Positions 13,853-14,257 of a stretch of 24,609 nucleotides of DNA are shown here, piece by piece. How positions within the stretch are numbered: position 1 is the stretch's first letter; every line of letters starts with the position of its first letter. Under the pieces are notes generated by a model. That model had not been told where the DNA came from. It did no database searches and saw only the letters and a list, made by a program, of their open reading frames with translations. Position numbers and translations under genes: made by a program. Source of the DNA: an uncultured Clostridia bacterium (GTDB taxonomy: Bacteria; Bacillota; Clostridia; Oscillospirales; Ruminococcaceae); contig CALMXN010000117.1 of assembly GCA_937871145.1 (NCBI GenBank), positions 1-24,609 of the forward strand. Reading direction: 5' to 3'.

Positions 13853-14257
13853 ATGAACATTAACGAATTCAGACTGAATAACCTAAAAGTCAATACCCCG
13901 ATACAGCCTGAATCCCAGAAGAAAGTTTCTCAGGACAACACAAAGCCACAGGGCAGTGCTTTCGCTCAGGCATTAAGGGAAAAGTTAAACCAGAACACAG
14001 GTTCTGTTGAATTTTCCAAGCATGCACTTGATAGAATTAATCAGCGCAGTATAGATATGACTGAGGGCAATAAGCTCGAAAGACTGAATAAAGCTGTTGA
14101 GCTCGCACAGGAAAAGGGTGCAAACGAAACTCTCGTTCTGATTGACAAAACTGCTTTTGTTGTCAATGTAAGAAACAACAAGGTAATCACAACAATGTCG
14201 GACTCCGATATGTTGGGCAACGTATTCACAAACATAGATTCAACCGTAATAATGTAA
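13853..14257 (+). CDS. Flagellar operon protein of unknown function (TIGR02530 / Flagellar_put type)
   Basis: FSKHALDRINQRSI, KGANETLVL, VVNVRNNKVITTM, VFTNIDSTVI; characteristic location between flgD and flgE. Confidence 0.88.
   Translation: MNINEFRLNNLKVNTPIQPESQKKVSQDNTKPQGSAFAQALREKLNQNTGSVEFSKHALDRINQRSIDMTEGNKLERLNKAVELAQEKGANETLVLIDKTAFVVNVRNNKVITTMSDSDMLGNVFTNIDSTVIM

Follow-up and report, generated by a model that had tools for sequence, protein, structure and literature searches.

Few flagellar operon genes that are widely conserved still lack an assigned function, and the TIGR02530 gene ('flagellar operon protein') is among them; its place directly ahead of the hook gene raises the question of what its product does there. 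We addressed this question in a 24,609-nucleotide stretch of DNA from an uncultured Clostridia bacterium (hereafter the window), in which the gene occupies positions 13853-14257 of the forward strand as an open reading frame with an ATG start, 134 codons and a stop codon. Its product scores 89.0 bits against TIGR02530, above the cut-off of 83.2, and 36.2 bits (cut-off 21.1, E 5.2e-9) against PF12611 (Flagellar_put), a match that spans just the last 24 residues of the 134-residue protein. The surrounding operon runs fliI, fliJ, fliK, flgD, the TIGR02530 gene, a 145-nt spacer, flgE, flbD, motA and motB, all of which places the gene, as expected of its family, between the hook cap gene flgD (13377-13817, +; PF03963, E 1.2e-17) and the hook protein gene flgE (14403-15944, +; Pfam Flg_bb_rod, LlgE_F_G_D1 and Flg_bbr_C). 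Neither an antitoxin or immunity gene nor a small partner open reading frame lies beside it, its neighbors being flgD and flgE. The source genome, a 75%-complete, 1.6-Mb metagenome-assembled genome, carries one copy, and the nearest named relatives of the protein are from Oscillospiraceae. The family as a whole comprises at least 1,829 clusters at 50% identity (E up to 0.001), while the gene is absent from control genomes including those of B. subtilis and E. coli, which build a hook nonetheless.

Published mentions of TIGR02530, PF12611 or DUF3766 and of flgE RNA motifs are at the level of annotation: the gene appears as 'FOP' in Roseburia and Eubacterium, as Cthe_0473, and as an open reading frame of phage G. 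Phage G has been reported to carry a TIGR02530-like open reading frame (bioRxiv 10.1101/2024.12.16.628780); in our search for phage homologs phage G gave no match at E 0.01, and the single match was on an unannotated faecal 'bacteriophage' contig. Separately, hypothetical proteins of 158-171 residues from Planctomycetota, found among ESM Atlas clusters, match residues 49-134 of our structural model with a TM-score of about 0.5 and an rmsd of about 2, and by this structural resemblance may be distant family members that carry no Pfam label.

Structural modeling gives the clearest view of the protein. The AlphaFold2 model, made with the family alignment as input, has a mean pLDDT of 85, with residues 50-134 (14000-14254, +) at 93-97; this core comprises a strand (52-53), two helices (56-64 and 71-87), three strands (92-97, 100-105 and 110-116), a short helix (117-120) and a final strand (130-133). 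Searching the PDB by sequence, with the single sequence or with a profile, produced no match, and Foldseek of the model against the PDB gave nothing below E 0.2; the fold is visible solely through an exhaustive structural alignment with VIA-align against 48,161 solved chains. The top 19 chains in that search are all ParE/RelE/HigB/YafQ/YoeB-type toxins or a RelE-like domain (Z 4.3-6.2), and include ParE, HigB2, the RelE-like domain of Cami1, RelE, YafQ, PrpT and YoeB. By the tool's own warning a Z of 5-6 is middling, and the weight of this result comes from the uniformity of the matches. Lower in the ranking stand CdiA-CT toxins, a weak match to chain 3ao9, titled 'C-terminal domain of sequence-specific ribonuclease' (Z 3.7), and T4 RegB (Z 3.5), whose Pfam model also matches the window protein weakly (E 0.039) and matches three of 131 relatives. 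Moreover, predicted structures of DUF4258 proteins in AFDB align to the model with Foldseek probabilities of 0.98-0.99, and an ESM Atlas DUF4258 cluster superposes on it with a TM-score of 0.70 over 68 residues (rmsd 2.3). The first-pass annotation, made from the letters of the window, had proposed a BECR fold and suggested comparing a predicted structure with RelE-type proteins; the model, the 19 best solved chains, every one of them from that superfamily, and the DUF4258 models all agree with the proposal. From the predicted structure we assign the core to the BECR (RelE/ParE/colicin-like) fold with high confidence.

Within this fold, the DUF4258 family (Ntox49, PF14076) shares the most recognizable sequence feature. 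Residues 54-67 (14012-14053, +) read F-S-K-H-A-L-D-R-I-N-Q-R-S-I, exactly as first reported, and form the signature F-S-K-H-A-x-x-R-x-x-x-R-x-I, which covers the end of strand 1 and helix 1 and corresponds to positions 1-18 of the DUF4258 profile. Two helices had been expected to follow this motif; the model makes the motif the first of the two helices, leaving a single helix after it. Taken alone, the window protein scores 12.5 bits against DUF4258, below the cut-off of 25 (E 0.18, with profile positions 1-18 alone matched), while 81 of the 131 relatives reach the Pfam model, the best at E 2.7e-4. Aligning profiles with hhalign gives a probability of 94.5% (E 7.4e-8) over residues 50-71 alone, a stretch of 22 residues; the DUF4258 profile used here was built from nine domains from Clostridia genomes, and the seed sequences carry the same H-A-x-x-R-x-x-x-R-x-I motif. 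Under relaxed settings the alignment remains collinear over 84 columns and pairs the L-V-L, h-v-V strand and V-I-T-A segments of the two families. The claim that the signature is common to both families is thus upheld by the profile alignment and by the many relatives that reach the DUF4258 model. As one component of our overall explanation, we tentatively regard DUF4258 as the closest kin of the TIGR02530 core, with its His-Arg-Arg helix retained, at a confidence slightly below even.

The residues of this signature are close to invariant. Across 131 diverse TIGR02530 relatives, F54 is conserved in 125, S55 in 129, H57 in 130, A58 in 127, R61 in 130 and R65 in 127, and this near-invariance marks the signature as a family trait rather than a chance resemblance. 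Further along the domain, K88 (130/131), G89 (124/131) and T113 (130/131) are similarly constrained, the last of these lying within residues 101-117, AFVVNVRNNKVITTMSD. The C-terminal family motif (14183-14251, +), which is the part recognized by PF12611 at E 5.2e-9, consists of V-I-T on the third sheet strand followed by N-V-F-T-N-I-D-S-x-V-I, and includes T126 (129/131), I128 (131/131) and D129 (129/131). [quoted passage not shown] In our model H57, R61 and R65 lie on helix 1 and T113 on the third sheet strand, elements which by analogy we take to be the pre-alpha helix and beta4 of the colicin-like active site. It is therefore plausible, on the model, that TIGR02530 proteins keep a catalytic-type pocket, and what speaks for a putative ribonuclease activity is that these four residues are conserved where an active site would be expected. 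The core is near neutral, with a pI of 5.3 in the window protein and a family median of 6.8; judged by composition, such a non-basic core differs from that of typical RNA-binding toxins and counts against a generic RNA binder.

Ahead of the core, residues 1-49 (13853-13999, +) form a variable region of low confidence, with mean pLDDT values of 56-74 per ten-residue block and a helix at 36-47 as the sole predicted element. In the window the protein begins M-N-I-N-E-F, and across the family this region is variable in sequence except at F37 and L41, which belong to an invariant FxxxL motif, here F37-A-Q-A-L41 (13961-13975, +), resembling the FlhB gate recognition motif. Among the 131 relatives, F is present in 130 and L or F occupies the second site in 128, at a median position of 37 (range 23-49). 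The consensus of the gate recognition motif is reportedly worded F-x-x-x-hydrophobic, after Evans and colleagues in 2013. By eye, matching motifs can be read in the window's own FlgD and FlgE translations, at F35-M39 and F41-Y45. The rod and hook subunits of Salmonella use this motif to dock on FlhB, and have an N-terminal hydrophobic signal upstream of it; the motif occupies residues 36-40 of FlgD, and in none of these subunits is it closer than 30 residues to the N-terminus (PMC8983047). The FxxxL of the window protein agrees with this position rule: it too stands 30 or more residues into the chain, within a disordered stretch, and small non-polar residues are present close to the start of the protein. 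These sequence features point to the TIGR02530 protein being an early (rod/hook-type) flagellar export substrate. The motif is short, and could instead pack on the domain. The first reading of the locus did not include the N-terminal FxxxL, and its addition shifts the likely logic towards control coupled to export.

What follows the gene is equally distinctive. The first-pass annotation placed hairpins 1 nt after the stop codon, and indeed the TAA ends at 14257 (14255-14257) and the first hairpin begins at 14258. This hairpin, P1 (14258-14280, +), carries an invariant GGAC (14263-14266) in an internal loop, and all five of its outer pairs covary. The second, P2 (14283-14308, +), has a 7-bp stem, with compensatory changes at all 7 pairs, and a 12-nt loop with an invariant GA-nn-GA-nn-GA. 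By folding and comparison, the rest of the flgE leader (14309-14402, +) contains hairpins at about 14324-14351 and 14352-14368, followed by a ribosome-binding site, AAGGAG, at about 14388-14393. The stretch 14255-14410 folds more stably than its shuffles (z -3.77), and the conserved element lies downstream of the TIGR02530 gene in 38 of 38 loci from other genomes. An alignment of 36 sequences supports the two hairpins, with 95.4% of cells paired and compensatory changes in 14 of 15 pairs; none of 500 shuffles reached the observed covariation values, and slid controls collapsed. The covariance model built from this RNA (R1) scores the P1-P2 region of the window at 47.3 bits (E 9e-11). No Rfam family matches the leader in a search of 13000-15500 at E up to 10, the sole weak match being unrelated and inside flgD, and the motif thus appears to be uncatalogued.

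Several features of the leader vary or admit more than one structure. The hairpins within 14324-14368 are unique to the window and its 98% relative (L001), and the 145-nt leader compares with 75-100 nt in most sampled relatives. The GA-nn-GA-nn-GA of the P2 loop (14290-14301) could form tandem sheared G-A pairs, as in a K-loop; the P2 5' arm is pyrimidine-rich in all lineages, and could alternatively pair with the purine-rich ribosome-binding site. The P1 3' arm itself resembles a ribosome-binding site, with a GGAG-like sequence. At 37 of the 82 loci that could be scored by a simple pattern, the stop codon, mostly UAG, falls within the P1 5' arm, and terminating ribosomes must therefore melt P1 there; elsewhere the spacing extends to more than 100 nt, so models coupled to translation termination are not general.

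No internal promoter or terminator above chance was found between the TIGR02530 gene and flgE. In wastewater and soil RNA libraries, which are available as contigs and where depths are low, one 2,232-nt contig from a strain about 96% identical covers fliK to flgE. Contigs from RNA libraries cross the junction of gene and leader unbroken and thus offer no hint of processing, though the ends of transcripts are not visible in contigs. The two RNA runs from the closest strains, whose libraries are kept as contigs, hold no contig across 14215-14405, and the public RNA runs for an Acetobacterium relative are tiny metatranscriptomic libraries.

The distribution of gene and RNA was then compared across 150 evenly sampled Clostridia genomes, with the RNA detected by R1. 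FlgD is encoded in 56 of these genomes, the TIGR02530 gene in 49 and the RNA in 47. The gene is present in 49 of the 56 genomes carrying flgD, and all 47 RNA-bearing genomes are among those 49, each primary copy of the RNA lying directly 3' of the gene. The two apparent gene-only genomes are accounted for: in one, the contig ends 38 nt after the gene, and in the other (G042), P1 carries a loop insert of about 100 nt while P2 is intact. This second genome belongs to Clostridiaceae, the family of Clostridium cochlearium, and in its leader (L050:170-330, -) the insert, with tandem CAATTGA-type repeats, lies within the terminal loop of P1; with the P1 stem and P2 both kept, the P1 loop evidently tolerates large insertions. 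Gene and RNA are both missing from the remaining seven flgD genomes, and in all five that were examined flgE starts 14-64 nt after flgD. Three of these five (L052, L053 and L055) encode an unusually short FlgE, of 270-286 residues, directly after flgD. The prediction that gene and RNA would co-occur therefore held: in no sampled genome was the RNA found without the gene, and where flgD is present but the gene is not, the RNA is missing too. Gene and RNA are contiguous, so a single insertion or deletion moves both, and their co-occurrence is weaker evidence than it looks.

Metagenomic loci broaden this picture. Among 80 such loci, R1 matches at E up to 1 in 72 and at E up to 0.001 in 63, always on the gene strand and just after the gene, and in the loci without a match a P1-like GGACC hairpin is still visible by eye. 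High-GC soil lineages (L124, L125, L099, L100, L102, L134 and L143) have the gene and P1 with GGACC, without P2, and their P1 stands about 10 nt before the flgE ribosome-binding site and 20-40 nt past the stop codon. The retention of P1 alone in these lineages indicates that P1 is the universal core of the motif and P2 an addition in the Clostridia sampled. Moreover, one genome carries a second copy of the RNA (L045:2508-2559, +; 46.7 bits) before a second flgE-flgK pair (open reading frames 2586-3938 and 3966-5099); here the neighbor on the upstream side is oriented divergently and no copy of the TIGR02530 gene lies alongside, while a normal module exists elsewhere in the same genome. The position of this copy before a second flgE indicates that the RNA is an flgE element rather than part of the TIGR02530 gene's 3' end, and a copy without an adjacent gene is as expected for a factor acting in trans. 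A stray copy of the RNA in another locus (L046:2557-2611, -; 39.6 bits) is followed by IS200-type tnpA and IS605 tnpB genes, and may be a leader severed from its gene by insertion.

From the observed fold, homology signal and conserved residues, together with a real structured RNA that strictly co-occurs with the gene, we infer that the RNA is bound or cut, in which direction this acts on FlgE, and that the protein is exported. Our best explanation, held tentatively and at a little less than even confidence, is that a domesticated BECR protein and a two-hairpin RNA form a single post-transcriptional control unit for flgE, probably under export control. The TIGR02530 protein would be a domesticated toxin-type domain behind a disordered, export-signal-like N-terminus. 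In the cytoplasm it would bind or cut the flgE leader, probably at P1 with its GGAC loop, and so set FlgE synthesis. While the rod and hook are being built, the flagellar export apparatus would carry the protein out of the cell; after the switch to late substrates it would be retained, and FlgE synthesis would be shut down. As a complete export-coupled hook checkpoint, in which the cytoplasmic protein blocks or cuts the leader at the GGAC hairpin, export permits FlgE synthesis and retention after hook completion stops it, this scheme is unlikely to hold in every part.

Other explanations account for portions of the same data. The TIGR02530 protein could be an exported accessory of hook assembly, such as one assisting the FlgD cap or the folding or export of FlgE, with the toxin fold reused for protein contacts and the leader a separate element served by another factor or by the ribosome. 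Its neighbors fliK, flgD and flgE all encode early export substrates, its N-terminus looks like an export signal, its core is not basic, its C-terminal N-V-F-T-N-I-D motif is specific to the family and absent from DUF4258, and ParE-type members of the BECR fold are not RNases (PMC11980606). A pure protein-binding role, however, hardly explains a near-invariant His-Arg-Arg helix common to DUF4258. The RNA, moreover, was in no case found apart from the gene across 150 genomes and 80 metagenome loci from very divergent lineages, and B. subtilis, E. coli and other control genomes build the hook without this gene. We consider an accessory function possible, if rather doubtful. The converse arrangement, in which the TIGR02530 protein is uninvolved and the RNA acts purely in cis, as a 5' stabilizer after processing by a general RNase or as a translational insulator or enhancer, or else is recognized by CsrA or by an L7Ae-type protein that binds K-turns or K-loops, we find quite unlikely. 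It would accommodate the stop codon in the P1 5' arm in 37 of the 82 scored loci, the invariably pyrimidine-rich P2 5' arm and the ribosome-binding-site-like P1 3' arm, as well as the possible K-loop in P2 and the GGA motifs that resemble CsrA sites, CsrA being encoded in the window's genome. Yet if the element were a general one acting in cis, at least some flagellates without the gene should carry it, and no such genome was found; in high-GC lineages P2 is missing, with P1 and the gene both kept. The distribution of CsrA misfits a role as partner of the RNA: it was not found in six RNA-bearing genomes, including a closed one (G128) and one that is 99% complete (G099), and is present in five flgD genomes without the RNA, so that CsrA tracks flagella and not the RNA.

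The fold itself suggests one more reading, namely that the gene is simply the toxin of some toxin-antitoxin or polymorphic-toxin system and has come to lie in a flagellar operon by chance. Both the fold and the signature are those of DUF4258, which is counted among type II toxins and has itself no demonstrated activity (PMC11980606). Against this, the gene has no antitoxin or immunity partner beside it and is flanked by flgD and flgE; it is present as a single copy in a constant operon position and is vertically conserved across at least 1,829 clusters at 50% identity; and true DUF4258 genes sit elsewhere in some of the same genomes (G020, G092 and G099). We therefore regard a chance toxin as extremely improbable, and return to the control unit of BECR protein and leader RNA as the preferred explanation.

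Placement in the BECR fold turns an unassigned flagellar gene into a concrete hypothesis, that of post-transcriptional control, perhaps coupled to export, over the early flagellar subunit made in greatest amount. Behind it stand a putative active site that is intact, an N-terminus of the export type and a new RNA motif to which the gene is obligatorily linked. The BECR fold family and the logic of assembly checkpoints are already known; their combination, and the RNA motif, have not been described. None of the literature mentions noted above describes the combination of fold and RNA, and two surveys of BECR proteins that discuss DUF4258 make no mention of flagella. If the explanation is right, it would provide a clear case of a conflict-system toxin fold recruited into housekeeping regulation, and the uncharacterized DUF4258/Ntox49 family would gain a candidate natural substrate. 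It would also supply an early-gene counterpart of FlgM and FliW-CsrA, in which a BECR RNase has been domesticated and paired with a new RNA motif.

Comparison with known families sharpens what is shared and what is not. With DUF4258/Ntox49 (PF14076), the TIGR02530 protein shares strand 1 and helix 1 with S/T-x-H-A-x-x-R-x-x-x-R-x-I, a Gly after helix 2, V/I-I-T-A on the third sheet strand, and the same topology. Unlike members of that family, it falls below the Pfam cut-off, its significant similarity being over 22 residues alone, and it has a 50-residue N-terminal extension and its own N-V-F-T-N-I-D motif, lacks an antitoxin and keeps one position in the flagellar operon. The type II toxins RelE, ParE, HigB, YafQ and YoeB are its best solved matches (62-77 aligned residues) and have the same order of secondary structure; however, identity is 3-15%, the catalytic residues of RelE lie on the sheet and at the C-terminus rather than on helix 1, and TIGR02530 has no antitoxin partner. 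T4 RegB, a BECR/RelE-like RNase with His48 and His68 as proposed catalytic residues, stops translation by cutting GGAG in ribosome-binding sites (PMC3014915). Its matches to TIGR02530 are below threshold in both sequence and structure, and the 3' arm of P1 is GGAG-like; RegB, however, is basic and requires ribosomal protein S1, whereas the TIGR02530 core is near neutral.

In its logic, the proposed unit resembles known assembly checkpoints. In FlgM/sigma-28 and in FliW-CsrA-flagellin, a regulator that is exported, or titrated by a type III substrate, couples expression to the stage of assembly, and the control of yop mRNAs by YopD-LcrH follows the same export-coupled logic. These systems act on late or injectisome genes, through an anti-sigma factor, CsrA or a translocator; here, by analogy, a toxin-fold protein would regulate the hook gene.
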